64,000 bases of DNA from an uncultured Oscillospiraceae bacterium (GTDB taxonomy: Bacteria > Bacillota > Clostridia > Peptostreptococcales > Anaerovoracaceae): NCBI GenBank assembly GCA_964345365.1, contig CAYFQR010000002.1, positions 33-64,032 of the forward strand, in the 5' to 3' direction. Under the pieces are notes generated by a model that was given only the letters and a program-made list of their open reading frames with translations, was not told where the DNA came from and did no database searches. A program made the translations under genes and the position numbers. This document shows, one piece after another, positions 3,826 to 20,488 of the stretch. Numbering within the stretch: the stretch's first letter is position 1; every line of letters begins with the position of its first letter.

Positions 3826-5054
3826 TTTATCAGCCTGTATACCTCGTTAACCATTCTTAAAGCAAAATATATCCTGTTATATTCTCTGCCCTTGCTCCTC
3901 CTTTTGACTTCAACACACTCGGTTTTTCCCATATATGAAATACCTATATATGCCAGTCCCGCAGGTTTATCGGGGCTTAAGTCATCCGGTCCGGCAACAC
4001 CTGTTATAGATATACAGATGTCCGAACCCGTTTTCTTTTTGAGGCCTTCCGCCATCTCGACGGCAACCTCCTCGGATTCAGCGGTATATTTTTTCAAAGT
4101 TTCGGGTTTCACATATAGCTCTTCCTCTTTCGCTCTATACGAATAGGTGACGATTCCTCTGTCGAAAACCTTTGAAATGCCCGGAACATCCGTGAACATC
4201 TTCGCAAATAAGCCGCCCGTGCAACTCTCACAACAAGAGATGCTTATATTCTTTTCAATAAGAAGCCTGCCGACAATGTCAATGAGATTCTCATTGTTTT
4301 CACTATAAATATAATCGCCGATTATTCCCTTTACTTTCTCTATCATCTCAAGGCAAGCCCTTTCAGCCTCTGCGTAGGTGCTGCGCTTTGAGGTGATTCT
4401 GAGACTGCACTCTCCTTCCTTCGCATAAGTGGCGATAGTAGGGTCGGTCTGGCCGTCAATCAGCGGCAGGAGCATCGTTTCAAGTGTAGACTCCCCAAGG
4501 TTTCTTGTCCTGATTATTCTGTAATAGATTACACCGTCCCTTTTTTTCTCAAGGTACGGAACCACATGTGCATTAAATATCGACTTCATTTCATTAGGCG
4601 GTCCCGGAAGTGCAACCACTACTTTGCCGTTCTTTTCCAGGAGAAATCCCGGTGCCGTTCCCGCAGAATTTGTTAAAACTATCGCATTCAACGGGAAAAA
4701 TGCCTGTTTAAGATTATTGTCCGACCACTTATACTTTGCTTTTTCAAAGTGATTTTTTATCTTTTCGGTTTCTTCGGGGAACTCCACAAGTTCTTCCCCG
4801 AAATACTCCGTTATTATCTCTTTTGTTATGTCATCCTGCGTAGGGCCGAGACCACCCGTTGTGATTACCATATCGCAATCCTCGTACGCGACATCAAGCA
4901 TCTTTTTAAGTCTCTTCGGGTTGTCACCCACCGAATAATGATACAGCACATCCATGCCTAAGTTTTGAAGCTGCTCCGAAATATAGGCAGCATTTGTATT
5001 TACAATTTGTCCGAACAGTATCTCTGTTCCTACCGTCAATATCGCCGTTTTCAT
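3822..5054 (-). CDS. cinA: Competence/damage-inducible protein CinA (MoCF-binding domain plus PncC-type nicotinamide-nucleotide amidase)
   Basis: 410 aa. Has MKTAILTVGTEILFGQIVNTN, and the C-terminal half contains CCESCTGG. Confidence 0.9.
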   Translation of the reverse strand: MKTAILTVGTEILFGQIVNTNAAYISEQLQNLGMDVLYHYSVGDNPKRLKKMLDVAYEDCDMVITTGGLGPTQDDITKEIITEYFGEELVEFPEETEKIKNHFEKAKYKWSDNNLKQAFFPLNAIVLTNSAGTAPGFLLEKNGKVVVALPGPPNEMKSIFNAHVVPYLEKKRDGVIYYRIIRTRNLGESTLETMLLPLIDGQTDPTIATYAKEGECSLRITSKRSTYAEAERACLEMIEKVKGIIGDYIYSENNENLIDIVGRLLIEKNISISCCESCTGGLFAKMFTDVPGISKVFDRGIVTYSYRAKEEELYVKPETLKKYTAESEEVAVEMAEGLKKKTGSDICISITGVAGPDDLSPDKPAGLAYIGISYMGKTECVEVKRRSKGREYNRIYFALRMVNEVYRLIK

Positions 5055-5146
5055 AATTATCCTTTAATTTATTTACCTCGATAAAAATTATAAACTTAAA
5101 TTATAAACTGTATATTGTCAAATCTAAATTTCCTAATACGAAACCG

Positions 5147-5671
5147 TTACTCCGAAAACACCTGCTTGTTATCGAGTACATACTCGATTCCGGAAATTAC
5201 GGTCATGATGAGTGCAGCATAAAGCATTACCTGTGAAGCAGCGAAATACCAATCCGTTTCCATCACGGGACATAAGAGCAGCATACATACCGCTATCATC
5301 TGAAGTACGGTCTTTATTTTGCCGCTCATACGAGCTGCTATGACTATGCCCTCGGATGCAGCCACCGTTCTCACGCCTGCGACCAAAAACTCCCTTGCGA
5401 GTATCAAGACGAACACCCATGCGGGTACATATTTCGGCACCATTAAACAAAACGCGGAATACACAAGGATTTTATCTGCAAGAGGGTCCATAATCTTTCC
5501 GAAATTTGTTATAAGATTATGTTTGCGGGCTATCTGTCCGTCAAGCATATCTGTAAATGATGCCGCAATAAAAATTATGAAAGCAGGAATATACCGGCCT
5601 GTCATATATGCCGCTATAAAAAACGGAACGGCTATCACTCTTGCAACTGTAAGTTTATTAGGCAAATTCAT
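5147..5671 (-). CDS. pgsA: CDP-diacylglycerol--glycerol-3-phosphate 3-phosphatidyltransferase
   Basis: 174 aa membrane protein with the CDP-alcohol phosphatidyltransferase motif DMLDGQIARK...DPLADK. Confidence 0.9.
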   Translation of the reverse strand: MNLPNKLTVARVIAVPFFIAAYMTGRYIPAFIIFIAASFTDMLDGQIARKHNLITNFGKIMDPLADKILVYSAFCLMVPKYVPAWVFVLILAREFLVAGVRTVAASEGIVIAARMSGKIKTVLQMIAVCMLLLCPVMETDWYFAASQVMLYAALIMTVISGIEYVLDNKQVFSE

Positions 5672-6993
5672 CCCTGTTCCTCCACTTCTCTTCCGACAAG
5701 GTCATAATCATAAGCATCGATTATCTCAACCTTTACGATATCTCCTGCCTCTAATTCTCTGTTTGCACTGAATATGACGGAATTATCAATTTCGGGGGCG
5801 TCATATTCCGTTCTCCCGATATAACTGCCGTCATCGTCACGTGCTTCCACAAGTACAGACAGTGTCTTTCCGATTAGATTCCGATTCAGTTCATAGCTGA
5901 TTTCAAGCTGTAACCGCATTACTCGGTCGAGGCGTTCCTGTTTTACGGATTCTTCTATCTGATTATCCATATCGCCCGCAACAGTTCCCTCTTCCCTTGA
6001 ATATGCAAAACATCCGAGCCTGCTGAATCTCTGTTCGCTTACGAAGTTCAAAAGCTCCTCAAAGTCCTTTTCGGTTTCGCCGGGGAAACCGACAATGAGA
6101 GTTGTCCTAATAGCAATATCAGGTACAGCTTCACGGAGCTTCTTAATCGTATCTCTGATGCTCTCCGCAGTCGAGCGTCTTCTCATAGACCTGAGCACGC
6201 TGTCCGACGAATGCTGAATCGGAATATCGATATATTTGCATATCTTAGGCTCATCTTTTATCACTTCAATAAGCTCATCGTCTATCCTGTCTTCATAGCA
6301 ATACATGAGCCTTATCCACTCTATCCCGTCAATCTTGACAAGTGAGCGCAAAAGTTTCGGCAGACATCTCTTTCCATACAAGTCATAACCGTAAATTGTC
6401 ACGTCCTGAGCTATAAGTATCAGCTCTTTACAACCCTTTGAAGCAAGAATCTCAGCTTCATTCAAGATGTCTTCCTCTTTCTTACTCCTGAAACTCCCCC
6501 TTATATGCGGTATTACGCAGTATGCACAGCGATTGTCGCAGCCTTCCGCGATTTTTAGGGTGGCGGAGTAAGGATTATCCGAAAGCACTCTCTCGCTATA
6601 CTTCAAAAAATCATCATGGGAATGAGTTACATTGCACCTTTTCTCGAAATTTCCGAGGCTTTTTAAGATTTCGGGAAGCTTATGATATTCGTTGACACCG
6701 ATAAACATATCGACCTCCGGCATCTCAAGTGTAAGCTCCTGCGAATATCTTTCCGAAAGGCAGCCGGAAACGACAAGTTTCTTTCCGCCGGCTTTATATT
6801 CCGCCATCTCGAATATTTTCTCAATAGACTCCCTTTTGGCATCGTTTATAAAACCGCAGGTGTTAACAACTATGACATCCGCATCGTCGGGGTTGTCGGC
6901 AAGCTCGAAACCGTCTTTTATGAGGAAGCCCTTTGCAACCTCACTGTCATTGAAATTCTTAGGACAACCTAATGTTTCAAAAAATATTTTCAT
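5668..6993 (-). CDS. rimO: Ribosomal protein S12 methylthiotransferase RimO
   Basis: 441 aa. N-terminal LGCPKN, a radical-SAM CxxxCxxC motif (CDNRCAYC) and a TRAM-like C-terminus. The stop overlaps the pgsA start. Confidence 0.85.
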   Translation of the reverse strand: MKIFFETLGCPKNFNDSEVAKGFLIKDGFELADNPDDADVIVVNTCGFINDAKRESIEKIFEMAEYKAGGKKLVVSGCLSERYSQELTLEMPEVDMFIGVNEYHKLPEILKSLGNFEKRCNVTHSHDDFLKYSERVLSDNPYSATLKIAEGCDNRCAYCVIPHIRGSFRSKKEEDILNEAEILASKGCKELILIAQDVTIYGYDLYGKRCLPKLLRSLVKIDGIEWIRLMYCYEDRIDDELIEVIKDEPKICKYIDIPIQHSSDSVLRSMRRRSTAESIRDTIKKLREAVPDIAIRTTLIVGFPGETEKDFEELLNFVSEQRFSRLGCFAYSREEGTVAGDMDNQIEESVKQERLDRVMRLQLEISYELNRNLIGKTLSVLVEARDDDGSYIGRTEYDAPEIDNSVIFSANRELEAGDIVKVEIIDAYDYDLVGREVEEQG

Positions 6994-9557
6994 TAAAACA
7001 ATGTCTCCTGTTTGTTCTGATTTTCGGCATAAGCCTCAAACTCCTCTCTCGTCATCAAAACCTGACGAGGTCTTGAGCCGTCCTGAGGGCCCACAACGCC
7101 CATCTCCTCCATTATATCGACTATCCTCGCCGCTCTGTTATATCCGATTCTGAATCTTCTCTGGAGCATTGATACCGATGCCTGCCCCGAATCTATCACA
7201 AGCTCCATAGCATCCATAAGAAGTTCGTCCGTATCGGCGGAATTACCGTCGGAGGCTCCGTTTCCGTTCACATCCGAGCGCTCAATTCTCGCTAAAATCT
7301 CCTTCTGTTTGCTGTCATCGGCATTGGCGACAGACTGTGATTTCACATAGTCTATTACTGAATTAACCTCTCTGTCGCTCACGAAACAACCCTGTATTCT
7401 GGTCGGCTCACCCTGCCCCATAGGTCTAAACAACATATCGCCTTTACCTAAAAGCTTTTCTGCACCTTTTTCGTCAAGTATAGTCTGTGAATCCACATGT
7501 GAAGATACCGCAAAAGCAATACGTGAAGGTATATTTGCCTTAATCACTCCCGTTAATACATCCACAGACGGCCTCTGAGTCGCGACAATCAGATGCATCC
7601 CGGCCGCACGGGCTTTTTGAGCTATCCTGCAGATCGAATCCTGAACCTGCGAAGATGCCGCCATCATTAAATCCGCAAGCTCGTCTATGACAATGACTAT
7701 TTGCGGAATGACTTTTTCTTCCTCATTGCTCAACCTTACAATATCATTGTATGTTTCAAGGTCTTTCGCACCCTCGGTATGAAATTTATTATACCTTTCC
7801 TCCATTTCCGCAACCGCCCAGTTGAGTGCAGCTGCGGCTTTCGTAGGGTCTGTAACCACCGGTATTAAAAGATGCGGTATACCGTTATAGTTGGAAAGTT
7901 CGACAACCTTAGGGTCGATTATAATCATCTTCACCTCATCGGGAGTCGCCTTGTATAGAAGCGAAGTAATAATTGAATTGATACATACAGATTTACCGGA
8001 ACCGGTAGAGCCGGCGATAAGGAGATGCGGCATAGCTTTAAGGTCTCCTACAATAACGTTTCCCGAAATATTCTTGCCTACCGCAAAAGTAATCTTTGAT
8101 TTTGCTTCCTTAAAGGCGGGTGAATCAATGATTTCCCTCAAGTTGACAGGAGAAAATCCTTCATTCTCTATTTCAATTCCTATCGCCGCCTTTCCCGGTA
8201 TCGGGGCTTCTATCCTGATGCTCCTTGCTCTGAGATTGAGTGCGATGTCATCGGCAAGATTTACAACCTTTGCCACCTTGACACCGACAGCGGGCTGTAT
8301 TTCATACCTTGTGACCGTAGGCCCCTGTGTGACCTGAACCACCGATGCATCGACGTTGAATGAACGGAGAGTTTCTTCAAGCTTCATAGCTTTTGCCTTA
8401 AGAGAGCTCTCCGGCTCTTTATTGGCGGCTACCGCCCTGTTAAGCAGATTTATCGGCGGAAGCTTATATTTCTTACCCGTAGGAGAAATATTCAATTCCT
8501 CGCTTTTAAGCATAGCCTCACTCGCTTCTCTGTTTGTTATCCTCTTTTGAGGCTCCTTGTCAGCCGTACCGTACTCCTGAGAAACAATATTGTCAACGAT
8601 GACGTCATCTCCATCCAGCCCGTAGCCTGACACCTGAACTCTCGGTTCCTCAAGGCCGTAGCTTCCGCTTTCGGTTCTGCCGAACAGAGAATCATCCTTC
8701 ATATAGCCTATAATCGTCTTTTTGCCGGCTGAATTATTGACACCGGTTTCTGCTTTCGCCGACGGAGGTATATATTCCTCTTCTCTTCTTGATGCGACAG
8801 TTCCGGCTGATACGGTCGAAGGCTTTTGAATATCGGTCTTCGACGGTCTTTTAACCTCAGGCCAAGGGTCGTTATTCATCACTGTCTGCGTTCCCTGTTC
8901 GTCTTGGTAAACCTCGTCCAAATGAGAGTGTTCCTTGATAAGACGCCTCTCCTCCAGCTTTTCACTTATCTTATGTATGAATCTTGAAAGCGGTGTATTG
9001 ATTAGTAAAAGAAGACAAACGAGCGCAGTGACTATCGAAAAAATCCAGCAACCTGCAACACCGAGCCATTTAATAAGAGCCGATGCGATGAGCATGCCTA
9101 TGAAGCCGCCGGATTCAAGCAGAATTCCTTTGGTATAGAAACCTGAAAGTGCCGCCTTGCTCCATACTATCTGTTCCGCGGAAACGAATCGAATCGAATT
9201 CATCGTGCAAAGCATGAATATGAATAAAAGCATCAACGGAACCGTTCTTACACTGAAATGAGAGGTTTTTCTTGCGAACAGAAGTACACCGAATATAACC
9301 ATGAAAACGGGCAGGACAAAAGATATCCAACCGAAAGTCCCTCTCATAACTTCTCTTAATATGTTTCCTAATTTTCCGGCACCCTCCGTAAAAACAGCAA
9401 CAGCAAAAAACACGCCGATTGCGATAATGATTATCGCCCATATCTCGTCCATTACACGTTTGTCCGCTTTTCTCTTAGCCTGTATCTCTTCAGCTTTCTG
9501 TCTTGCCCTTGATGTCGGTTTCGATTTTGAAGCACCCCTGCCGCTAGCGTTAGCCAT
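6993..9557 (-). CDS. ftsK: DNA translocase FtsK/SpoIIIE
   Basis: 854 aa. N-terminal transmembrane segments, the motor domain with GSTGSGKSV Walker A, and a C-terminal gamma winged-helix domain (LQRRFRIGYNRAARI). Confidence 0.93.
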   Translation of the reverse strand: MANASGRGASKSKPTSRARQKAEEIQAKRKADKRVMDEIWAIIIIAIGVFFAVAVFTEGAGKLGNILREVMRGTFGWISFVLPVFMVIFGVLLFARKTSHFSVRTVPLMLLFIFMLCTMNSIRFVSAEQIVWSKAALSGFYTKGILLESGGFIGMLIASALIKWLGVAGCWIFSIVTALVCLLLLINTPLSRFIHKISEKLEERRLIKEHSHLDEVYQDEQGTQTVMNNDPWPEVKRPSKTDIQKPSTVSAGTVASRREEEYIPPSAKAETGVNNSAGKKTIIGYMKDDSLFGRTESGSYGLEEPRVQVSGYGLDGDDVIVDNIVSQEYGTADKEPQKRITNREASEAMLKSEELNISPTGKKYKLPPINLLNRAVAANKEPESSLKAKAMKLEETLRSFNVDASVVQVTQGPTVTRYEIQPAVGVKVAKVVNLADDIALNLRARSIRIEAPIPGKAAIGIEIENEGFSPVNLREIIDSPAFKEAKSKITFAVGKNISGNVIVGDLKAMPHLLIAGSTGSGKSVCINSIITSLLYKATPDEVKMIIIDPKVVELSNYNGIPHLLIPVVTDPTKAAAALNWAVAEMEERYNKFHTEGAKDLETYNDIVRLSNEEEKVIPQIVIVIDELADLMMAASSQVQDSICRIAQKARAAGMHLIVATQRPSVDVLTGVIKANIPSRIAFAVSSHVDSQTILDEKGAEKLLGKGDMLFRPMGQGEPTRIQGCFVSDREVNSVIDYVKSQSVANADDSKQKEILARIERSDVNGNGASDGNSADTDELLMDAMELVIDSGQASVSMLQRRFRIGYNRAARIVDIMEEMGVVGPQDGSRPRQVLMTREEFEAYAENQNKQETLF

Positions 9558-9569
9558 AGTGATTTCTCC

Positions 9570-10403
9570 TTAAAAAAACATTGTTTTAGCTATTATCCCT
9601 ACACCGATAACAAATAAATAATAGGAAAAGTATTTCAGCTTATTGTTTTTCACGATTTTCAGCATGACCTTTATTGCAAAAAGCCCGCTGATAAATGAAA
9701 TGAGCACCCCGACAGCAACGGGTCCCGCTTCGCCCGGAGCCAAGCCCGCCTTAATTCCGTCGGGAAGTTCCAAAAGAAATGAACCCAATATTGTGGGAAT
9801 TGAAATTAGGAACACAAACCTAACAGCAAATTCTCTGTCAAGCTTGCAAATCAGCGAAGCAAACAACGTAGAACCCGACCTTGATATTCCGGGTATAATT
9901 GCAATACCTTGCACAATCCCGATAAATAAGGAATTTCTATAATTGAACTGTTCGATATTTCTATCACCGCCACCGTATTCCTCGGCAATCAAAAGCAAAA
10001 CGCCTGTAACGATGAACATCGCGGCAACAAAAGCGGGATAAGCATACATGCTTCCGAAAAGATCTCCGAAAAACAAGCCGATAATTGCGGTCGGCACACA
10101 AGAAACAAGTATCATCACTCCTAATTTTCTGGTTGGATTGTCTTCCAACCTCAAACCTTTGCCCGTACATAAGTCTTTTATTGTTAACACTAATTCTTTC
10201 AGCAATTCCCAAATATCTTTCCAAAATACGATGAAAACTGCAATCAGTGTTCCTAAATGCAGTAGAACGGCAAAGAACACCATGTTTTCTTCTTTGATTC
10301 CGAAATAGTTTTCAACTATTGCCAGATGTCCCGACGATGAAATCGGTAAAAACTCCGAAAGTCCCTGAACGAGTCCGAGAACCGTCGCCTCAAAATAACC
10401 CAT
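9570..10403 (-). CDS. uppP: Undecaprenyl-diphosphatase
   Basis: 277 aa polytopic membrane protein with the BacA signatures LSEFLPISSSGH and PGISRSGST. Confidence 0.9.
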   Translation of the reverse strand: MGYFEATVLGLVQGLSEFLPISSSGHLAIVENYFGIKEENMVFFAVLLHLGTLIAVFIVFWKDIWELLKELVLTIKDLCTGKGLRLEDNPTRKLGVMILVSCVPTAIIGLFFGDLFGSMYAYPAFVAAMFIVTGVLLLIAEEYGGGDRNIEQFNYRNSLFIGIVQGIAIIPGISRSGSTLFASLICKLDREFAVRFVFLISIPTILGSFLLELPDGIKAGLAPGEAGPVAVGVLISFISGLFAIKVMLKIVKNNKLKYFSYYLFVIGVGIIAKTMFF

Positions 10404-10406
10404 TGT

Positions 10407-11501
10407 TTATTTCTCCTTATTTTCCAAATATCCCATTTTATAGAGCGTCTCCGCACCGAGCACTCCCCCGCCTGCGGCTCCACGGAGCGTATTATGTGAA
10501 AGCCCTATGAACTTCCAATCATAAATACTATCTTCTCTTATTCTCCCTACGGAGATTCCCATGCCGTTTTCCCTGTTTACATCCGCCGTTACCTGCGGTC
10601 TGTCATCTTCACGGAAGTACTTTATAAACTGCTTCGGTGCTGACGGAAGCCCATTTTCCTGCGGATATCCCGAATAGTTTTCTATCGCCTCTATCAATTC
10701 TTCTTTAGAGGCTTTCTTTCCGAGTTTGACAAAACAGGCCGCAGTATGACCGTTTAACACCGGAACCCTTATGCATTGACAGCTGATACGGATATTGTCC
10801 GCATTTACTATTGCCCCGTTCTCTATTTTTCCCCATATCTTAAGAGGCTCTTCCTCGGATTTTTGTTCTTCTCCGCTTATATAAGGTATGATGTTTCCTG
10901 CCATTTCCGGCCAGGAGCCAAAATCCTTGCCCGCACCCGAAATAGCCTGATATGTCGTTATGACGGCCTCATAAGGCTCCCACTTTTTCCAAGCCTCAAG
11001 AACAGGCACATATGACTGAATCGAGCAGTTCGGCTTAACCGCAATAAATCCCCTCTTTGTTCCGAGCCTCTTTCTCTGACTTTCAATTATCCTGTAGTGC
11101 TCAGAATTGATTTCAGGAATTACCATAGGAACGTCCTTTGTCCAACGATGTGCCGAATTATTCGATACGACAGGGGTTTCAGCCTTGGCGTAGTCTTCCT
11201 CTATCTTAATTATCTCTTCCTTATCCATATCAAGTGCGCTGAAGCAAAAATCGATAAGATCGGAAACCTCGTCAACCTTGCTCACATCCATCACCTTCAT
11301 TTCTCTGACGGACTCGGGGATATCGATATCCATCTTCCATCTTCCGCTAACCGCTTCCTCATAGCTCATTCCTTCTGAGCGAGGACTTGCGGCAACTGCC
11401 GCTATTTCAAACCACGGGTGATCATGGAGAAGTGTAATAAACCTCTGCCCTACCATTCCTGTAGCTCCTAAAATACCTACTCTTAATTTTTTCATTATCA
11501 T
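10407..11501 (-). CDS. asd: Aspartate-semialdehyde dehydrogenase
   Basis: GILGATGMVGQRF Rossmann motif and PNCSIQ active-site Cys. The start is moved to the internal ATG (11499-11501) after a GAAAGG RBS, because the longer ORF overlaps nth. Confidence 0.85.
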   Translation of the reverse strand: MIMKKLRVGILGATGMVGQRFITLLHDHPWFEIAAVAASPRSEGMSYEEAVSGRWKMDIDIPESVREMKVMDVSKVDEVSDLIDFCFSALDMDKEEIIKIEEDYAKAETPVVSNNSAHRWTKDVPMVIPEINSEHYRIIESQRKRLGTKRGFIAVKPNCSIQSYVPVLEAWKKWEPYEAVITTYQAISGAGKDFGSWPEMAGNIIPYISGEEQKSEEEPLKIWGKIENGAIVNADNIRISCQCIRVPVLNGHTAACFVKLGKKASKEELIEAIENYSGYPQENGLPSAPKQFIKYFREDDRPQVTADVNRENGMGISVGRIREDSIYDWKFIGLSHNTLRGAAGGGVLGAETLYKMGYLENKEK

Positions 11502-11515
11502 CAGCCTTTCTATAT

Positions 11516-12151
11516 TTATTTCTTTGTCTTTTCTTTCCATTCGCACAGCTCGTTTATCGGGCAAGCAGGGCAATCGGGCTTTCTTGCTGAGCATATATTC
11601 CTGCCATGAAAAATCAGGCTGTGGTGTGTCTTTGTCCACCTGTGCTCAGGTATGTTTTTCATCAGTGACAGCTCCGTCTTAAGTACATCTGCGCCCTTTG
11701 CTATGCCTATTCGGTTCGACACCCTGAATACATGAGTGTCCACGGCTATTCGCTGCTCTCCGAAACCTACGGAAAGAACTACATTCGCGGTCTTCCTGCC
11801 GACTCCGGGAAGCTTTATCAGCTCATCGTATTCATTCGGTACTTTTCCGGAATGTTTCTCAACGATAATCTCTGACAGTCCGATTATATTCTTTGCTTTT
11901 TGGTGATACATCCCTATTCTTTTTATACACTCTTCCACTTCACTTATCTCGGCGGACGCAAGCAAGTCCGGAGAAGGATATCTTGCGAAAAGCTCCGGCG
12001 TGACCACATTCACCGCCTTGTCGGTCGTCTGTGCCGACAGAACCACGGCAATCAGCAGTTGGAACACATTTTTATGGTCGAGCGCACACTCCGCTTCGGG
12101 ATATGTCTCTTCTAATATATCTAATATTTTTTTAATTTTTTCTTTTACCAT
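11516..12151 (-). CDS. nth: Endonuclease III
   Basis: 211 aa. HhH-GPD motif (LPGVGRKTANVV) and a C-terminal 4Fe-4S Cys cluster (CSARKPDCPACPINELC). Confidence 0.92.
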   Translation of the reverse strand: MVKEKIKKILDILEETYPEAECALDHKNVFQLLIAVVLSAQTTDKAVNVVTPELFARYPSPDLLASAEISEVEECIKRIGMYHQKAKNIIGLSEIIVEKHSGKVPNEYDELIKLPGVGRKTANVVLSVGFGEQRIAVDTHVFRVSNRIGIAKGADVLKTELSLMKNIPEHRWTKTHHSLIFHGRNICSARKPDCPACPINELCEWKEKTKK

Positions 12152-12991: not shown

Positions 12992-13702
12992 CTATCCCAC
13001 TATAACCGACATCAGCCATACAACCGGCGGTGTTATAATAATCGATGTAACATTAAATATTATAAGTGCCATAAGTATCAAAGTGCCTCTTTGATATATA
13101 GGATACCACCAGCTGTATTTTCTAAGGTCGAATATCTGTGTTATTATACCCCAGCCGTCAAGCGGAGGGCAAGGTATCAGGTTGAATATCATCAGTACGA
13201 GGTTAATATATACCGTAAAGAACACCATGTCGAACAGGATTCCGTTTGCCATTGAGTTCTTAATCATAATCCTTGCAATAATTCCGAAGAACACGGCAAT
13301 CAGTAAATTGATTGTAACTCCCGCTATAGATACGATGAACTCGTCACGCCTTTTGTTCTTATAAAAATACGGGTTTATTTCAACAGGCTTTCCCCAGCCG
13401 AATCCCGCAATGATTATAAAAACCATACCTATGGGATCAATATGTGTCATAGGACTTATAGACAGTCTCCCTTGCGACTTCGGTGTCGGGTCACCCAATA
13501 AATGCGAAGCATAGGCATGCCCCGCCTCATGTAGCGATATTCCTATAATTATACCCGGGAGCAGAACCAACTTAGCATACAGCCAGGCGCCCGGATTACT
13601 CATGTTAAGCAATCTTTCTACAATGAGGATTGCAATAAAAACCCAGAATATCGGGTCCATTCTCCTGAAAAATCTTTTTATATCGTCGATTATTTTTCTC
13701 AT
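12992..13702 (-). CDS. Site-2 protease family (peptidase M50) membrane metalloprotease
   Basis: 236 aa, multi-transmembrane. HEAGHAYASH (HExxH) and NLIPCPPLDG motifs. Confidence 0.8.
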   Translation of the reverse strand: MRKIIDDIKRFFRRMDPIFWVFIAILIVERLLNMSNPGAWLYAKLVLLPGIIIGISLHEAGHAYASHLLGDPTPKSQGRLSISPMTHIDPIGMVFIIIAGFGWGKPVEINPYFYKNKRRDEFIVSIAGVTINLLIAVFFGIIARIMIKNSMANGILFDMVFFTVYINLVLMIFNLIPCPPLDGWGIITQIFDLRKYSWWYPIYQRGTLILMALIIFNVTSIIITPPVVWLMSVIVG

Positions 13703-13778: not shown

Positions 13779-14510
13779 TCAATAATAAAAGCCTCTTTTT
13801 ACATCGGAATATTCCTCAACCCTCGCCAAATACGCCTCCATCGCCGCCTCCTCATGTGCGAGCTTGGGTTCCTCTATCCCGATGCTCCTTAAAAGCATCT
13901 CGGTAAACGGAGGATTAAGCACCAGAAGCGGCCCGATTAAGTATGTCCCGATGAAGTTGTTTTTCTTTATCCCCTCTTCCGTAATTTCGGGGTTAAAACC
14001 TGAGCCTCGTTTTGTCATAAAAGCATAACACTCTTCGACGCCGGTATAGCAGCTATGTGAAAACTGTGATTTATATCCGACAATAATTGTATCGCCGTAC
14101 TTACCGGAATATTCTCCGAGATAGAGCGAATTAAATCTCTTCATAAGGTCAAGCTTCGCATATGTATTGAAGATACCGAGACACCTGAAGATTTCCCCGT
14201 CCGCAGATTCAATCCTGTCACCGAAGACTTCGATTGCATTTCCCGTTATCAAAAAATGCACGCCCAGCTCTATGAGCTCTCTTATTCTCTCCACATATTT
14301 TCCGAGTTTGTCCGTCACAAGACGCTGTGATGACTCCGACATCGTGCCCATATATATTAAGTCGGGCAGATTATTTGCAAAATACGGTTCTTCGGTCAGG
14401 TAATCCTCAACAACCTCAATCTCGTCCGAACATTTTTTTAGATAGCTTATATTCTCAAGGTCACCGTAAAGATTGGCGACCTCCGGAAACAATATTTCTA
14501 TTTTAATCAT
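13779..14510 (-). CDS. GatD-like CobQ-type amidotransferase homologue lacking the catalytic Cys and His (pair A)
   Basis: Collinear with S. aureus GatD as I recall it (NLYGD..., GTY.xGP). The nucleophile elbow reads LITGNAIEVFG instead of LTICGGYQFLG, and GTYLIGP replaces GTYLHGP. The ATG at 14508-14510 follows GGAGGG and overlaps the upstream stop by 8 nt. Confidence 0.75.
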   Translation of the reverse strand: MIKIEILFPEVANLYGDLENISYLKKCSDEIEVVEDYLTEEPYFANNLPDLIYMGTMSESSQRLVTDKLGKYVERIRELIELGVHFLITGNAIEVFGDRIESADGEIFRCLGIFNTYAKLDLMKRFNSLYLGEYSGKYGDTIIVGYKSQFSHSCYTGVEECYAFMTKRGSGFNPEITEEGIKKNNFIGTYLIGPLLVLNPPFTEMLLRSIGIEEPKLAHEEAAMEAYLARVEEYSDVKRGFYY

Positions 14511-15882
14511 TGAAGTCGCCCTCCTCAAGCCTTTTTTTAACCATATCGGCAACCTTTATTCCGAGTTCCAAAGAATCCGTTCCATAGAGAACAAATATAT
14601 TATCATTCTCAAAAAACTTCAATCTGTCCGGTGCATCGATTTCCTTTTCGGCGAATGAAAGACGGCTTTCATCTACGCCTGCGAGCAAAAGTCTGAGCTT
14701 ATGGTCGTGCCTTCTCGGGCCGCAGAGCACGATATTCTTAATATTATCTCTGTTAAGAAACTCGAAATCGCAGTCATAAAGCCAGCAGGTATTTTCACTC
14801 CAGTGTTTCATATCTCCCTGACATGAGTTCATCAGAATTATTTCCTTGTCGCCCGGCATCCCTGAAATATAATCAAAAACCCTCGTCGTAGCGAAAGCAT
14901 TTTTTTCTTTTGCGAGCATTCTGAACAGCTTCTTATCCCCGAATTGTTCTTCATCAAATCTCGACTCGACCAAGTTTACCCTTTCAAAAAATCCTTTTAT
15001 TTCTCCTGAGCCGTATCCGAGTTCAAACAAAAGCGTTATTACGGAAACTTGGTTATATATATTAAATATGCTGTCGTTCAAAAGGCGGTAACAGCCCGTT
15101 TCTGACGGCGTGTTCACGTCAATCGACATTCTGTCGGTGTCCGGGTTTTCCGCCGTATAATCGTATTCCGGAGACTTAAATCCGCAATTATCACAATAAG
15201 CCTTGCCGATATGATTATACCTCAGATACTCGTATTTCAACCTGTGGCTGCAAACGGGACAAACTTGAAAGTCATTTATAAGATTAATGCATTCCGTAAT
15301 GTCATTCTCAAGCCTGTTAACACCGTAATATACCCTCTTGTTTAACGGTGCTATTCTCGAAGATATAAGGTCATCAGCATTTAGAATGAGTATCGAATCC
15401 TCGGGTATATTATTTGACAGGAAATCGGCGATATATTCAGGGTGAGCATTTCTCATTATCGAATCTCTGCTTAGGTTTGTTACCAATATATATTCGGGCT
15501 TCAAGAAAGGAAATACCCTCTTCGCCGACCTCTCGTCAACCTCAAAAACTCCTATCTCGTATTTTTCCGAGCCGAAAATGCTCATTCCCTGCACGAGTGC
15601 CGTGGCAATTCCCGTGTCAATATTGGAACCCGCCGAGTTATTCAGAACTATTTTATTGTCAACTCTTAAAATGTCGGTTATCAGATTGGAACAAGTAGTC
15701 TTGCCGTTTGTACCGGTAACCGCAATTATTTTTTTCGGCTTTTTTGCATAGCTTAAGAATGACGGGCAGATCTTAAGTGCGACAATACCCGGGAAATTTG
15801 TCCCGTTATGTTTGGTTATCCTAAGTGCGACAATCGCAAGCTTAGCCGCCCAAAGCGCTATGATATATCTGATAAAGCCCAT
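14503..15882 (-). CDS. MurT-like Mur-ligase-family protein with a DUF1727-type C-terminal domain (pair A)
   Basis: VTGTNGKTT P-loop, FEVDE, TNLSRD, a Cys4 ribbon (CPVC...17 aa...CDNC) and a C-terminal WLYDCDFEFL...KLRLLLAGV segment. The start is set at ATG 15880-15882 (GGAGG RBS, TAATG overlap with the upstream stop). The resulting N-terminus matches paralogue B. Confidence 0.8.
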   Translation of the reverse strand: MGFIRYIIALWAAKLAIVALRITKHNGTNFPGIVALKICPSFLSYAKKPKKIIAVTGTNGKTTCSNLITDILRVDNKIVLNNSAGSNIDTGIATALVQGMSIFGSEKYEIGVFEVDERSAKRVFPFLKPEYILVTNLSRDSIMRNAHPEYIADFLSNNIPEDSILILNADDLISSRIAPLNKRVYYGVNRLENDITECINLINDFQVCPVCSHRLKYEYLRYNHIGKAYCDNCGFKSPEYDYTAENPDTDRMSIDVNTPSETGCYRLLNDSIFNIYNQVSVITLLFELGYGSGEIKGFFERVNLVESRFDEEQFGDKKLFRMLAKEKNAFATTRVFDYISGMPGDKEIILMNSCQGDMKHWSENTCWLYDCDFEFLNRDNIKNIVLCGPRRHDHKLRLLLAGVDESRLSFAEKEIDAPDRLKFFENDNIFVLYGTDSLELGIKVADMVKKRLEEGDFND

Positions 15883-16934
15883 TATTTTATCGCCTCCGTT
15901 ATGGATTTGTATGTTCCCTGTTTCAGCTTCAAATCTTGACAAAGGTCTTGTGACGGGTAGCTGTTTCCTTCAATCAGAAGAGGCCCGTGGTCCTCGGAGA
16001 TGCATACGTCCCATCCGACATAACCCACCTGCGGCACCAGATTGGCTGCTTCCTGAATCATGCCGAGAACTTCGTCCCATTTCGGAATTCGGAAACCCTT
16101 CAGCACCGTTCCTGAACCGGGTACTCTCTCGAACACATTTCTGTCTTTATCGAAACCGTCGGAAATGATTTCTCCCGTCTTAAAATCATAAATTGTAGAA
16201 ATACCGCCGTTATTGAAATTATCCACCACAGAACCGGGTTTACCCATCCTTATCCCGCCGGAAACTATTACAGCCTTGCCGTCTTTTAATATTGTGATAA
16301 CCCTAATGGTGTTCACGGAATCGGCGCTTAAGAGATTCATCGTCTTGTCCTGTTTCACCACTTCCTCCGCAAGCGGCTTATCATTATCTACGAGGTACAT
16401 ATAAAGCTCCTCGGTATCCCAATCCGAAACTTTAATCTTTTCGATACCTCTTCCGCAGCTCTCATGAAGAGGCTTGACCATTATATATTCTTTGCCTACA
16501 AGAAAAGCTTTGAAGGCTTCAGCATCGCTTCCCTCGACTCTGTCCGTTTCCTTAAGTGCAGTCCCTTTGATGTCTCCGAACATCTTCCCTTTGCCGAGGA
16601 CTATCCAGTCGCGCTTCATAAAGCTGTTGAATTTTTTGTTAAAAATCGCCTTGTCCTCGAAATACTGTATATATCTCCTGTCGTTGAACCTTTTGAAGAT
16701 CTTGTTATTCTTGCCGAGTGTGAGGATTTCATCCCTCTCCTTATGGTTTTTATTGTACATCTCAAAAAACTCATAATCGACATGGCCCGAGCCGTACCTG
16801 AGCGTACAGTAAAATATGTCCCGACGTACCGCCCTCCACGATTTCCCCGTTTTAGCGGCTATCCTCTTTGCCGTTTCATCGAACCTCGACAAGTCTGTTG
16901 TTTTAAGTTTTTTAATGTAGAAGCTAAGATTCAT
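15882..16934 (-). CDS. ATP-grasp fold ligase (resembles the sugar-transfer-associated ATP-grasp / RimK-related amino-acid ligase family)
   Basis: 350 aa. The C-terminal half (IMVKPLHESCGRGI..., NFNNGGI, VGYVGWDVCISEDHGPLLIEGNSYP) is typical of an ATP-grasp fold. ATGA overlap with the upstream gene. Confidence 0.7.
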   Translation of the reverse strand: MNLSFYIKKLKTTDLSRFDETAKRIAAKTGKSWRAVRRDIFYCTLRYGSGHVDYEFFEMYNKNHKERDEILTLGKNNKIFKRFNDRRYIQYFEDKAIFNKKFNSFMKRDWIVLGKGKMFGDIKGTALKETDRVEGSDAEAFKAFLVGKEYIMVKPLHESCGRGIEKIKVSDWDTEELYMYLVDNDKPLAEEVVKQDKTMNLLSADSVNTIRVITILKDGKAVIVSGGIRMGKPGSVVDNFNNGGISTIYDFKTGEIISDGFDKDRNVFERVPGSGTVLKGFRIPKWDEVLGMIQEAANLVPQVGYVGWDVCISEDHGPLLIEGNSYPSQDLCQDLKLKQGTYKSITEAIK

Positions 16935-17647
16935 GTAAGTGTTCTCCTCAATTCGTTAAGTCTGTAATTATATGCCTCAATGATGTTTTTTTCAAACGCT
17001 ATCTCATCATTGAGTCCCATAAGTCTCAAGAGATATTTGACAAAATACGGGTTAAAGATGAGATATGGCCCGAGAGAGTACGTGGCAAAGAAATTATTGA
17101 CATGAATCCCCTCTCTCCCGGTTTCCGGATTCATCCCGATTCCCGTTTCAATTTTCAAAAAATAATCCTTAAACTCACCGTAGCTGAAGCTGAATTGGCT
17201 CCGGTGCCCGAGCAGCGTCATGTCTTCAAACGTCGCTATATACTGCGAATTATGCCTCGGCAAATCCATATTCCTCACGGAATAAAAATCAAACAACCCG
17301 AGTGCGGGCACTTCTTTTATCAAATTGCCCGACAAGTCATTTTCTTTTATTAGATTCCCGAATATTTCGATTGCATTGCCCGTTACCAAAAATATGGTGC
17401 CGGCAGCTATCGCCGCCTCTATCTCGCCTCGATACCCCCTCAAAAGCTCTATCGTCTTTTCCTGATGTCTTTCCGTCATGCATCCGATATAGACCATATC
17501 GGCATCTGCTGTGAGGAACCTCGGCTTTTCGAGATGATGTGTCATGATAACCTCAAGCTCGTCGCTGCTTTTTTTGAGATATTCGATATTGTAACATTCA
17601 CCGTAGATATTGGTAAACTCAGGATAAATAAATTCAATCTTTTTCAA
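16931..17647 (-). CDS. GatD-like CobQ-type amidotransferase homologue lacking the catalytic Cys and His (pair B)
   Basis: 238 aa. Has FLVTGNAIEIFG at the nucleophile elbow and ATYSLGP at the His position. TTG start in a TTGA overlap with the upstream stop, preceded by an AAGGGGG RBS. Confidence 0.75.
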   Translation of the reverse strand: MKKIEFIYPEFTNIYGECYNIEYLKKSSDELEVIMTHHLEKPRFLTADADMVYIGCMTERHQEKTIELLRGYRGEIEAAIAAGTIFLVTGNAIEIFGNLIKENDLSGNLIKEVPALGLFDFYSVRNMDLPRHNSQYIATFEDMTLLGHRSQFSFSYGEFKDYFLKIETGIGMNPETGREGIHVNNFFATYSLGPYLIFNPYFVKYLLRLMGLNDEIAFEKNIIEAYNYRLNELRRTLT

Positions 17648-19002
17648 CTGTTTGCCCCCTTCGCATATTCTACGATGCTGTCACGCATATTTTTCGCCTT
17701 GGTAACATAATCAATTTCAAAAAGCACATATACTTTATCTATTCCTTCCCTGTCCACATGCTGCGGAATATCAGCCTCCTCCTCAACCGCCACAATCTTT
17801 TCCTCTGGCACTCCTGCGAGGAGCAGCCTCAGCTTATGATTGAGAAACATGTGTCCGCCCACCACAATCTTCTTGATATGCGGGCGATTCAAAAACTCAT
17901 AGTCGGTTTCATAAAGCCATGAAATCGTTTCGGTCGGATGATGTCTATCCTGCACCTCGTCCATAAGAAGAACCACATTTTTGTCGGACGGCTCGTCTGC
18001 CATATATTCGAATACCGTAGCAGCCGCCGAAACATTCTGCGATTTAGCCGCATAAGCAAAATATTCTATCCCGTTATACGTTACCGACGACTCTCTGATA
18101 TCCGTTATCTTCTGCCTTTGCATAAACTCCGAAATAACACCCATCTCATAGCCAAGTTCCAGAAAAAGAGCCGCTGCGGTAAGCACGTTGAAGCAGTTGA
18201 ACATCGTATCCGAAATCAGAGGCACGGTTTCTCCGTTCAATGTCATCGTTTTATTTAAGAGGTCTATATTTTTTGCGAGATATTTGCTCTCGGGAGTCTT
18301 GAAATCACAGCTCTCGCAGTGATATTTTCCTATATGTCTGTAGAGTCTGTAATCGTATTTTATCTTGCCGTCGCATACGGGACAGACTGAAATATCCCTC
18401 GAAATATTCGGCAGCGGTCTGAAACTGTCATCATCGATACCGAAAAATACCCTTTCAATATTTTTGGCAAGCCCGATTGAAATCGGGTCATTGGCATTTA
18501 ATATCGCCTTTGCGCCTTTTTTTGACATCCTCATGCACTTTTCCATGTGATTGAAGATGTTCTCGGGATGCCCGTTTCGTCTTAAACTGTCCTTGCATAT
18601 ATTGGTTACAACTATGTAATCCGGCTTAAGCTTCACCATCTCCGTATCCATCGAAAGCTCATCCGCCTCAAGCACCGAGCAGTCCACCTGCGGCTTGTTG
18701 AAAATATTCACTCCCCTGATGAGATTAACGGCAAACCCCGCCATGAGATTTGCACCCCAGTCGTTAAAAGAAGTCGACAGTCCCCGCTCGCTCAAAAAAT
18801 CGTTCACAAGCACGGATGTCGTAGTCTTGCCGTTTGTGCCTGTAATGGCTATCGTGAGCTTCGGTTTAGAAACAATTTCTAAAAAATCCGGACAAATCTT
18901 ACACGCCAGGAGCCCCGGCATATCCGTCTTCGGTGTGCCTCTGAGCTTATAGAATAACATCATCATTTTCGCTCCCCACAGAGCGATAAAAAATCTGAGC
19001 AT
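17644..19002 (-). CDS. MurT-like Mur-ligase-family protein with a DUF1727-type C-terminal domain (pair B)
   Basis: 452 aa. ITGTNGKTT, LEADE, TNICKD, a Cys4 ribbon (CPVC...17 aa...CESC) and SWLYETDYEFL...KLRLLLAGV. GGGAG RBS. It starts 10 nt after the cls stop. Confidence 0.8.
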   Translation of the reverse strand: MLRFFIALWGAKMMMLFYKLRGTPKTDMPGLLACKICPDFLEIVSKPKLTIAITGTNGKTTTSVLVNDFLSERGLSTSFNDWGANLMAGFAVNLIRGVNIFNKPQVDCSVLEADELSMDTEMVKLKPDYIVVTNICKDSLRRNGHPENIFNHMEKCMRMSKKGAKAILNANDPISIGLAKNIERVFFGIDDDSFRPLPNISRDISVCPVCDGKIKYDYRLYRHIGKYHCESCDFKTPESKYLAKNIDLLNKTMTLNGETVPLISDTMFNCFNVLTAAALFLELGYEMGVISEFMQRQKITDIRESSVTYNGIEYFAYAAKSQNVSAAATVFEYMADEPSDKNVVLLMDEVQDRHHPTETISWLYETDYEFLNRPHIKKIVVGGHMFLNHKLRLLLAGVPEEKIVAVEEEADIPQHVDREGIDKVYVLFEIDYVTKAKNMRDSIVEYAKGANS

Positions 19003-19012
19003 ATTGCACTCC

Positions 19013-20488
19013 CTAAAGTATCTCGGTGAGAAGCCTTGAGATACTCTCCTTGAATCTTACAAAAATCGGACGTTTATTATAATCTTCCATTGTCAGTTCA
19101 CGGCTGTTCTTCATATCTTCCTCAAAGGATTTTACCATTTGCTCCGTAAATTCCTTATCGAAGATAAATGCATTTGTTTCAAAATTCAGCTTAAACGACC
19201 TTATGTCGAAGTTACATGAACCTATGGACGTGACCTCCCCGTCCGCAAATATCGCTTTTGCATGCAGGAAACCTCCGTCATAGATGAACACCCTGCATCC
19301 GTCCTTGAGCAGCTCTCCCACATTGGAAAGGGTCGCCCAATATACGAAAATATGGTCAGGCTTATTCGGTATCATTATGTTGACTTTAACTCCCGATTGC
19401 GATGCCATCTTGCATGACTCTATAATCGATGCGTCCGGAACGAAATAAGGAGATTGAATATATACGGAATCCGTAGCAGCGGTAATCATCTTCATGAAAC
19501 CGCGCTTGATTTCCTGCTTTGGAGCTTCAGGCCCGCATGAAACGATTTGCAGTCCCATATCGCCGGCAACCTCGGTATTGATACGCCCCGCATCAAGCAA
19601 ATCGAGCTTCTCCTTAGTTACGAAACGCCAATCGAGAATGAATCTCGTGTTAAGCTCGTTCACTCCCGTTCCCCTGATTCTCACGTGTGAATCACGCCAA
19701 TGTCCGAATTTCGGTGCCAAATCACAATATTCGTTGCCGATATTATATCCGCCCGTATACCCTATTTTGTTGTCGACCACCAGAATCTTTCTGTGGTTTC
19801 GGTAGTTGAGGTTAAGCCCTATCTTTATCCCCATCCTTGCCAATCTCGGAGGGAAAAAATATGCCACCTTGCCGCCTGCTTTAATATATTCTCTGAGCAC
19901 TAAGTTATTCAAACCTCTTGAGCCGAGAGAGTCTACGAGCAGCCGAACTTCCACGCCTTCTCTCGCTTTCTCCGTCAGCGCCGCTATGAAACGCTTGGCT
20001 GTCTTATCATTTTTGATTATAAAATATTCCGCATTAACGGACGTTTCGGCATTTCTTATATCTTCAAGCATCCTGTCAAACAGCTCATTCCCGTCCACGA
20101 TGAGTTCTATATCATTCGTTTCGCTATATATGGCATTGCCGTAAACCTGATTCAGTATTACCAAATCCCTCCACTTGTATGCGGAGTAGTTATCAAGCCT
20201 GAGTTTCCCTTCCTCCAGCTCTTTAATCTGATAATCGAGATAGCCTCTTATAACGCTTTCCTCGTTATCATAGAGTTTGTTTATCTTGATTCGGGTAAGG
20301 TTCTGATTAAAAATCAAGTATAGTATGAACCCCAACACCGGAACAAACGCCAAAACCATAATCCACGCCAAAGTAGCAGTCGATGTTTTTCTCTCGAAGA
20401 ATATGACTGCCACGATTAATATGAAGTTTATTCCATATACCACCATTGTAGAGGATATATAGCCAAGCGGCGTTTCCATTTCAAACAT
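19013..20488 (-). CDS. cls: Cardiolipin synthase (PLD family)
   Basis: 491 aa. Two N-terminal transmembrane helices and two HKD motifs (NHRKILVVDN..., FLHAKAIFADG...). Confidence 0.9.
   Translation of the reverse strand: MFEMETPLGYISSTMVVYGINFILIVAVIFFERKTSTATLAWIMVLAFVPVLGFILYLIFNQNLTRIKINKLYDNEESVIRGYLDYQIKELEEGKLRLDNYSAYKWRDLVILNQVYGNAIYSETNDIELIVDGNELFDRMLEDIRNAETSVNAEYFIIKNDKTAKRFIAALTEKAREGVEVRLLVDSLGSRGLNNLVLREYIKAGGKVAYFFPPRLARMGIKIGLNLNYRNHRKILVVDNKIGYTGGYNIGNEYCDLAPKFGHWRDSHVRIRGTGVNELNTRFILDWRFVTKEKLDLLDAGRINTEVAGDMGLQIVSCGPEAPKQEIKRGFMKMITAATDSVYIQSPYFVPDASIIESCKMASQSGVKVNIMIPNKPDHIFVYWATLSNVGELLKDGCRVFIYDGGFLHAKAIFADGEVTSIGSCNFDIRSFKLNFETNAFIFDKEFTEQMVKSFEEDMKNSRELTMEDYNKRPIFVRFKESISRLLTEIL

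Follow-up and report, generated by a model that had tools for sequence, protein, structure and literature searches.

A recurrent clostridial locus joining MurT-like ligases, pseudo-glutaminase GatD-fold partners and an ATP-grasp ligase, and its possible role in tailoring a peptidoglycan precursor

What might a bacterium do with two pairs of proteins resembling MurT and GatD, placed on either side of a stand-alone ATP-grasp ligase? This question is raised by a 64,000-nucleotide stretch of DNA from an uncultured Oscillospiraceae bacterium of the Anaerovoracaceae (contig CAYFQR010000002.1; hereafter, the window), in which five successive minus-strand genes at 13779-19002 encode, in this order, MurT-like B, GatD-like B, an ATP-grasp protein, MurT-like A, and GatD-like A. 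Canonical MurT and GatD form one heterodimer, an essential and drug-targeted cell-wall enzyme that amidates the alpha-carboxyl of D-isoglutamate (D-iGlu) in lipid II. Here, we describe how both GatD-like proteins of the window have, by their sequences, become pseudo-glutaminases while their MurT-like partners keep a Mur-ligase ATP site, and we argue that the locus is, on balance, probably a cytoplasmic ATP-dependent amide-bond module that tailors a lipid-linked peptidoglycan precursor (lipid II or lipid I).

The five genes are packed without a gap. MurT-like ligase B (17644-19002, minus strand, 452 residues), a core member of the module, made up of a Mur-ligase central domain, a four-cysteine (Cys4) zinc ribbon, and a MurT_C domain, is followed by pseudo-GatD B (16931-17647, minus strand, 238 residues, TTG start), a homologue of GatD-type class I amidotransferases without the catalytic residues. 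Next come the ATP-grasp ligase of the ATPgrasp_ST family (15882-16934, minus strand, 350 residues), the accessory paralogue MurT-like ligase A (14503-15882, minus strand, 459 residues from its ATG), and pseudo-GatD A (13779-14510, minus strand, 243 residues from its ATG). The stop of MurT-like B and the start of GatD-like B meet in TTGA (17644-17647), GatD-like B and the ATP-grasp gene in ATGA (16931-16934), and the ATP-grasp gene and MurT-like A in TAATG (15880-15884), where the ATG of the latter and the stop of the former share one base; the stop of MurT-like A and the ATG of pseudo-GatD A overlap by 8 nt, ATGATTAA (14503-14510). Purine-rich ribosome-binding sites (GGAG, AAGGGGG, GAGGAG, GGAGG, and GAGGAGG) lie 5' of all five starts. 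A mechanical list of open reading frames places the start of the A-type MurT at a TTG at 15942 and that of the A-type GatD at a TTG at 14552, and we prefer the ATG starts on the basis of homologue alignment and of these ribosome-binding sites. The gene positions, the four overlapping junctions, and the individual ribosome-binding sites thus read in the sequence as the initial annotation had claimed, and its domain calls match the Pfam scan (Mur_ligase_M with MurT_C, a weak GATase_3, and ATPgrasp_ST).

Are the GatD-like proteins glutaminases? Against Pfam GATase_3 (cut-off 27 bits), pseudo-GatD B reaches 32.1 bits and A 26.7 bits, and with the GatD equivalog model they reach 45 and 60 bits, respectively, versus a cut-off of 450. 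They are 39% identical to each other. The AlphaFold2 model of A (predicted local distance difference test score 89.6) superposes on the GatD structures 5n9m and 6gs2 with a template-modelling (TM) score of 0.80-0.81, extra C-terminal helix included, and its best phmmer match is Staphylococcus aureus GatD (2e-12), whose Cys94 aligns with a Gly and whose His189 aligns with an Ile; pseudo-GatD B has FLVTGNAIEIFG and TYSLGP in place of the Cys94 and His189 motifs. We compared 49 GatD-like sequences (A, B, and 47 relatives) with four canonical controls, all of which have every catalytic residue intact. In the GatD-like set, Cys94 is replaced by Gly (47/49), Gly95 by Asn (48/49), Ile93 by Thr (48/49), and Gln98 by Glu (46/49), Leu, Ile, or Val stands in place of His189, and most members have Cys, Ser, Thr, or Pro for Gly60, so that the family carries the replacement motif T-G-N-[AS]-x-E. 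In S. aureus, the very substitution C94G abolishes glutamine-dependent amidation of lipid II, and C94A, H189A, and R128A each kill the glutaminase activity of GatD; the position of Arg128, which binds glutamine, falls in a gappy stretch of our alignment. The initial annotation had called both partners non-catalytic, and this is borne out as far as glutaminase activity is concerned: Cys94, His189, and the oxyanion glycines are lost, as is the triad Asp borne by MurT (see below). Judged on these residues, the GatD-like proteins of the window are GatD-fold pseudo-glutaminases whose altered positions are conserved rather than decayed.

The MurT-like proteins tell a complementary story. Both have the Mur_ligase_M plus MurT_C architecture with a truncated N-terminus (Pfam matches that pass the cut-offs, with E-values for MurT_C and Mur_ligase_M of 3e-19 and 6e-13 for B and of 3e-21 and 6e-11 for A), the best Protein Data Bank (PDB) match is S. 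aureus MurT (2e-49), and the NCBIfam MurT equivalog model gives 146 bits for B and 187 bits for A versus a cut-off of 800. MurT-like A is 38% identical to MurT-like B and 31.5% identical to S. aureus MurT. When 33 locus-derived sequences (A, B, and 31 relatives) are aligned to S. aureus MurT, the P-loop (TGTNGKTTT in B), E108, N267, and the Cys4 ribbon are kept throughout, and in this alignment each MurT-like protein is shown to retain the Mur-ligase ATP site. Position 349, in turn, has changed from Asp to Asn in A (loop KHWSENTCW) and to Thr in B, and the DNAAD motif is missing (NSCQGD in A, DEVQD in B); the motifs found instead, [RK]DSxxRN[AG]H, HPTET, and HWSEN, are conserved across the family. 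In S. aureus, MurT-D349N severely reduces glutamine-dependent amidation of lipid II. Since Cys94, His189, Gly60, and Gly95 of GatD are replaced together with Asp349 and DNAAD of MurT, glutamine cannot be the nitrogen donor of these pairs.

These features extend well beyond the window. A phmmer search with MurT-like B against 1.84 billion cluster representatives recovered 454 clusters at E<1e-30, and in nearly all of the top 150, [RQ]DSxxRN[AG]H stands in place of the canonical RDQMDRFGE and [ST]E[NT]xxW in place of GRD349TSW. In a neighbour-joining tree of 63 sequences (449 columns, 100 bootstraps), a branch supported at 97/100 has the sequences of this dead type on one side and canonical MurT plus a small intermediate group on the other. 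Clade B (100/100) groups with ATP-grasp-linked and fused forms and clade A (82/100) with stand-alone pairs; a tandem duplication as the origin of A and B was discarded, as the two are separate, non-sister clades within a very large family. The four canonical pairs that came from metagenomes all carry CGGYQ, and three of them carry YLHGP as well. The claim that the two pairs are diverged MurT/GatD paralogues accordingly holds on three counts (equivalog scores far below cut-off, loss of the triad, and the 97/100 split), and the phylogeny and profile comparison that had been proposed as a check place neither pair inside the orthologous MurT/GatD clade, with a catalytic triad that is not intact. 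The intermediate MurT group (P0250, P0260, P0263, P0264, P0266, P0269, and L025:3778-5848) has RDQLTRNG[HN] and clusters with canonical MurT, with Asp at position 349 in P0250, P0260, P0263, P0266, and P0269 and Glu in P0264 and L025. In L025, the single case in which the partner is also visible, the GatD is of the dead type (TGNS, MIGP), and this group may represent a transitional state.

The third component, the ATP-grasp protein, matches PF14397 (ATPgrasp_ST) with 161 bits versus a cut-off of 31.4 (3e-47), and its sole NCBIfam match is a model of RimK-related alpha-L-glutamate ligases (TIGR02291) at 53 bits versus a cut-off of 314. A PDB sequence search with its profile returned nothing significant. 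The folds nearest to its AlphaFold2 model (predicted local distance difference test score 91.5) are Ddl, RimK, ArgX, PsnB, and GshB, with TM scores of only 0.38-0.45. K154, E190, E191, D309, E322, and N324 are invariant in 44 homologues and are predicted, by analogy, to bind ATP and Mg. By its sequence, then, the protein is an amide-forming ligase of the uncharacterised family PF14397, and the notion of three ATP-dependent ligases in the cassette stands, as all three proteins keep their ATP-site residues. Elsewhere, tandem pairs of ATPgrasp_ST genes adjoin MurJ-like or Polysacc_synt flippases in four loci (L052, L057, L060, and L071, around 5000-10600) of Clostridia and Oscillospiraceae metagenome-assembled genomes, with no MurT-like gene close by; these two-ATP-grasp loci may be a separate branch-building system.

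Is the five-gene set itself the unit of function? We scanned one genome per species of the Genome Taxonomy Database with an alignment of the ATP-grasp protein and labelled the resulting loci by blastp. The ATP-grasp gene of each of the 23 best-scoring loci is accompanied by at least one of the B-type GatD-like and MurT-like genes, only GatD-B being labelled in two of these loci (L012, which ends at a contig end, and L026), and none of the next 57 ATP-grasp loci has a MurT-like gene within 8 kb. Ranked by E-value, the top 23 are all cassette-linked; an identity threshold separating cassette-linked from free ATP-grasps was given up, the two ranges overlapping at 40-44%. The full order of pair B, ATP-grasp, and pair A is found in six species-level loci (L007, L015, L016, L018, L027, and L028) and on the metagenome contigs L003/L004, at 45-65% protein identity. 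This recurrence in six other species-level genomes and on metagenome contigs indicates that the arrangement is more than chance, and the conservation of gene order in relatives had been named as a check by the initial annotation. However, the view of the five-gene cassette as the basic unit had to be given up, as three-gene versions (pair B with ATP-grasp, or ATP-grasp with pair A) are commoner and lone pairs exist. Pair B and the ATP-grasp gene alone occur in the synteny of the window in L001 (on the same contig as L013) and in seven species (L008-L014), and in unrelated flanks elsewhere, including the cultured Mobilibacterium timonense (L020). The ATP-grasp gene with an A-type pair is seen in L176-L178, pair B with an inverted ATP-grasp gene and pair A in L179/L180, and up to three MurT-like/GatD-like pairs near one locus in L024 and L025. 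A-like pairs stand alone in L096-L101 and L110; the A-type metagenome scan selected generic P-loop patterns, about 15 of its 80 loci being relevant. From these three-gene and lone-pair loci, we take the conserved unit to be the MurT-like/pseudo-GatD pair, often joined to an ATPgrasp_ST ligase, of which the five-gene set is one recurrent combination. The carriers of the module are Clostridia of the gut and rumen.

Gene fusions in relatives support the functional link that had been supposed among the three kinds of protein. ATPgrasp_ST is fused to a MurT-like domain in P0152 and P0169, and a MurT-like domain to a dead-type GatD-like domain in P0145, P0146, P0226, and P0238. A further fusion bears on the substrate: in P0124 (1004 residues; L087:7800-10814, and also L088 and L089), a multidrug/oligosaccharidyl-lipid/polysaccharide (MOP) flippase of the MurJ/SpoVB type is joined to a MurT-like domain, and on 6 contigs a GatD-like gene comes next. 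The flippase part is recognized by Pfam Polysacc_synt, MatE, and MurJ, and its best NCBIfam models are SpoVB and MurJ, below cut-off. Such a covalent union of a flippase with a cytoplasmic ligase that would modify precursors is already unusual on its own. Similar flippases adjoin the module in L024 (by tblastn), L090, and L095, and several loci have murein genes as neighbours, namely MurA in L090 and in 5 ATP-grasp-only loci, alanine racemase in L095, MurC and GlmU in L176 and L179, GH25 in L092, and an NlpC/P60 gene inserted within the cassette in L028. These flippase and murein-gene associations are suggestive of a peptidoglycan precursor as the substrate. The initial annotation had hesitated between decoration of peptidoglycan and a cyanophycin-like peptide, and of these two the genomic context (the flippase fusion, MurA, MurC, Alr, NlpC/P60, and GH25) favours the former, the cyanophycin-like polymer being less favoured.

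On this basis, how might the module work? Each MurT-like protein is coupled by overlap to a GatD-fold subunit lacking the nucleophile, the catalytic His, and the oxyanion hole. We propose that the MurT-like enzyme would phosphorylate a free carboxylate of the stem peptide, as MurT does, the candidates being the alpha-carboxyl of D-iGlu, the epsilon-carboxyl of meso-diaminopimelic acid (mDAP), or the carboxyl that is free on a residue just attached by the ATP-grasp ligase. The acyl-phosphate would then be captured by an amine not derived from glutamine hydrolysis. The pseudo-GatD would be an obligatory structural partner, with a remodelled and highly conserved ex-active site that may hold the nucleophile, while the ATP-grasp ligase would add or extend a side-chain residue and pairs A and B would act on different carboxylates or with different nucleophiles. 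The retention of a dead GatD partner is explained by the fact that MurT is inactive without GatD, even with an ammonia donor.

Several observations weigh against a role in tailoring the peptidoglycan precursor. The peptidoglycan-related neighbours are scattered over different loci, each with one or a few occurrences, and the flanks of most cassette loci are variable and uninformative, consisting of housekeeping genes. The cassette of the window is itself surrounded by general housekeeping genes (Cls, MiaB, GpsA, PlsY, EndoIII, and FtsK), and no flippase is found within 64 kb. The ATPgrasp_ST family is nominally tied to surface polysaccharides rather than to peptidoglycan, and the literature yielded no peptidoglycan chemotype for the Anaerovoracaceae.

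If the module does act on a murein precursor, the nature of the nucleophile becomes the central question, and an amino acid or diamine is slightly favoured over free ammonia. In its first form, which we advance tentatively, the precursor is tailored with an amino acid or amine. It is likewise no more than possible that the pairs represent a new class of Mur-type ligases adding an amino acid or a diamine to a carboxyl of lipid II (e.g., the alpha-carboxyl of D-iGlu), in which the ex-glutaminase pocket binds the nucleophile and which, together with the ATP-grasp ligase, builds a branch on the stem peptide. In this regard, a class-III aminotransferase gene lies directly downstream of two independent MurT-like/pseudo-GatD units (L092:2957-3868 and L099:7556-8803). 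Class-III aminotransferases include diaminobutyrate, ornithine, and putrescine aminotransferases, and this neighbour may be a hint of a diamine or diamino-acid nucleophile, or a coincidence.

The alternative within murein-precursor tailoring is that the pairs are ammonia-dependent amidotransferases, converting a carboxylate into a carboxamide with free ammonia from an ammonia-rich gut or rumen. Here, the dead GatD would be kept for structure only, and the two pairs would amidate two different carboxylates (e.g., that of D-iGlu and that of a D-Asp or D-Glu branch made by the ATP-grasp ligase, or that of mDAP). Plain ammonia-dependent amidation was missing from the jobs listed in the initial annotation, and it is rendered a serious option by the S. 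aureus MurT/GatD-C94G enzyme, which carries the same substitution as the proteins described here and still amidates lipid II in an ammonia-dependent manner at pH 8.5, even though the S. aureus enzyme has no ammonia-dependent activity at neutral pH. The equivalents of Asp136 and Arg140 of the Streptococcus pneumoniae MurT loop, which lies at the MurT/GatD interface and may form an ammonia channel, are kept in the [RK]DSxxR motif; the carriers are rumen and gut anaerobes; and this would be the simplest evolutionary step from MurT/GatD. However, the ex-glutaminase pocket and the MurT loop facing it carry strongly conserved, clade-specific motifs and show no drift, the family is split into many co-occurring paralogue clades, and the tight coupling or fusion with a peptide-forming ATP-grasp ligase suggests more than amidation. 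It is this clade-specific remodelling, the number of paralogues, and the peptide-ligase coupling that support an amino acid or amine as the nucleophile, and we regard ammonia-dependent amidation as rather unlikely.

A more distant possibility, which we deem improbable, is that the module tailors another lipid-linked surface glycopolymer, such as a teichuronic-acid-like or capsular repeat whose uronic or other carboxylates would be amidated with amino acids. PF14397 is indeed defined by Pfam as "sugar-transfer associated," more distant ATP-grasp homologues adjoin LytR-CpsA-Psr (L005) as well as Wzz and Polysacc_synt genes, and MOP flippases export many lipid-linked glycans, those found here scoring below the SpoVB and MurJ cut-offs. 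Yet, in the cassette loci with scanned neighbours, no glycosyltransferase, sugar-nucleotide, or polymerase gene stands beside the cassette, the flippases best match SpoVB and MurJ rather than Wzx, the closest characterised relative of the ligase works on lipid II, and the neighbours MurA, MurC, Alr, NlpC/P60, and GH25 are murein-specific.

Still less probable is a split machine resembling cyanophycin synthetase, in which the ATP-grasp ligase would extend a backbone and the MurT-like ligases would add side chains, yielding a branched polymer or a small peptide in the cytoplasm. Cyanophycin synthetase combines an ATP-grasp module with a Mur-ligase-like module, which in CphA1 act on one growing substrate, and P0152 and P0169 have the ATP-grasp before the Mur ligase, just as G precedes M in CphA1. 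Besides, the module is self-contained, no export gene being found in the window, the best weak family match of the ATP-grasp protein is RimK-related (TIGR02291, 53 bits), and RimK is among its nearest folds. By contrast, the cyanophycin synthetase models reach only 23-30 bits versus cut-offs of 850-877, the N-domain of CphA is absent, and no cyanophycinase appears among the scanned or annotated neighbours. The MurT-specific MurT_C domain, Cys4 ribbon, truncated N-terminus, and GatD partner are all kept, the Mur-ligase part being of the MurT type rather than MurE/F-like, the genes are separate in the window, and the fusion and adjacency to membrane flippases, along with the murein-gene association, indicate a lipid-linked substrate.

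Finally, that the pairs are ordinary duplicated MurT/GatD lipid II isoglutaminyl synthases, or decaying copies of them, is refuted at the sequence level and deserves hardly any credence: their best database relatives are indeed MurT and GatD, and one homologue is auto-annotated as "lipid II isoglutaminyl synthase (glutamine-hydrolysing)," but the equivalog scores (146 and 187 versus 800; 45 and 60 versus 450), the three missing triad residues, and the 97/100 bootstrap split speak against orthology, while the reading frames are intact, the motifs are conserved, and the family is maintained over many species and 454 clusters, which excludes decay. The homologue in question, P0278, is a relative of pseudo-GatD A that bears this name in its Joint Genome Institute record, and since the catalytic Cys and His are missing family-wide, the name is probably a propagating misannotation; where pipelines apply this label, the sequences contradict it.

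How does the tailoring module that we favour compare with known systems? Like MurT/GatD (S. aureus 6GS2/7Q8E; S. pneumoniae 6FQB), each pair is made of two translationally coupled genes, with a MurT-type central domain (P-loop, E108, N267, Cys4 ribbon, and MurT_C, without the UDP-binding N-domain) and a GatD fold with the extra C-terminal helix (TM score 0.81), but unlike MurT/GatD, the pairs of this family are present in more than one paralogous copy at a locus and have an ATP-grasp ligase linked or fused to them. It is ATP-grasp ligases that install the D-Asp and D-Glu residues of cross-bridges. Compared by description, the ATP-grasp protein recalls the Enterococcus faecium D-aspartate ligase Aslfm and the RimK-type ligases, which add a residue through an acyl-phosphate, but it belongs to PF14397, a family without a characterised member or a close structure (TM score at most 0.45). 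The closest experimental parallel is S. aureus GatD-C94G, a dead GatD that still supports MurT activity with ammonia, except that in the proteins described here the dead state arose in nature long ago, extends across the family, and goes with a conserved replacement motif. Our literature searches found nothing on PF14397/ATPgrasp_ST, MurT-like/GatD-like proteins, MurT paralogues, pseudo-glutaminases, or B-type or cadaverine-linked murein in connection with MurT. No paper, structure, or curated model was found for the dead-glutaminase MurT-like/GatD-like family, and the statement that no characterised system is known with such an architecture agrees with our searches of the literature and the PDB. 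The "MurT-like" proteins of the pseudomurein papers were considered and set aside, being an archaeal clade without a GatD partner that is unrelated to the family of the window.

The locus exposes a large sister family of MurT/GatD (hundreds of 50%-identity clusters), a family that is coupled to uncharacterised ATP-grasp ligases and whose glutaminase, although systematically dead, is conserved, and it offers a natural example of an amidotransferase evolving into a different ligase with its pseudo-enzyme partner kept. Were lipid II the substrate of the module, unknown modifications of the stem peptide would be expected in gut and rumen Firmicutes that are uncultured or have barely been studied, and these would bear on cross-linking, on lysozyme and antibiotic susceptibility, and on the sensing of commensal muropeptides by NOD1/NOD2. 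If the pairs were, more specifically, amino acid or diamine ligases, they would be enzymes for alpha-carboxyl-substituted or type-B-like cross-bridges, and a murein chemistry so far unrecognised would come to light in Clostridia that abound in the gut and rumen.

The immediate surroundings of the cassette invite a few additional remarks. A cardiolipin synthase gene (Cls; 19013-20488, minus strand; TIGR04265, 507 bits versus a cut-off of 290) ends only 10 nt from the start of MurT-like B, the gap (19003-19012) containing the ribosome-binding site of the latter, so that the packed run of genes exceeds five and Cls is probably co-transcribed with the cassette. Of the 23 species-level loci, 11 have Cls directly upstream of MurT-like B, as does L003, and 11 others lack it. 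It keeps this position even in loci with different genes farther upstream (L003, L015, L016, L018, and L027), and the reason could be either that membrane-lipid and envelope functions are transcribed together or that the synteny was simply inherited. We considered it as a sixth functional member of the module and downgraded it, as it is a bona fide Cls that is adjacent only in Anaerovoracaceae-type loci, where it is a conserved neighbour and probably not a functional member.

On the other side, 76 nt downstream of the cassette, a gene at 12992-13702 (minus strand) encodes a small membrane protein of 236 residues resembling M50/site-2 proteases (Peptidase_M50, 3e-11; HExxH and NxxPxxxLDG). It also follows the cassette in at least 10 related loci (L001, L008-L012, L014-L016, and L027), and M50 proteins flank three ATP-grasp-only loci too. 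The scan for promoters and terminators over 12.8-23.6 kb revealed neither a convincing operon boundary nor, in the 76 nt between the cassette and the M50-like gene, a terminator.

The Rfam scan of the whole 64-kb window returned no family at gathering score (no transfer or ribosomal RNA, riboswitch, or leader), in a region whose genes lie almost wholly on the minus strand, and no further MurT or GatD homologue was found within it. The guanine-cytosine content is even across the window, and the genes of the wider region are those of an ordinary chromosome (SMC, FtsY, Der, PlsY, GpsA, MiaB, Cls, the cassette, the M50-like gene, GntR, EndoIII, Asd, BacA, and FtsK). The open reading frame of the aspartate-semialdehyde dehydrogenase Asd (10407-11639, 410 residues, GTG start) overlaps the EndoIII gene (11516-12151) by more than 100 nt, and translation probably begins at the internal MKKLRVGILGATG instead. 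Asd and BacA (9570-10403), both related to murein precursors, lie 2-4 kb downstream of the cassette.

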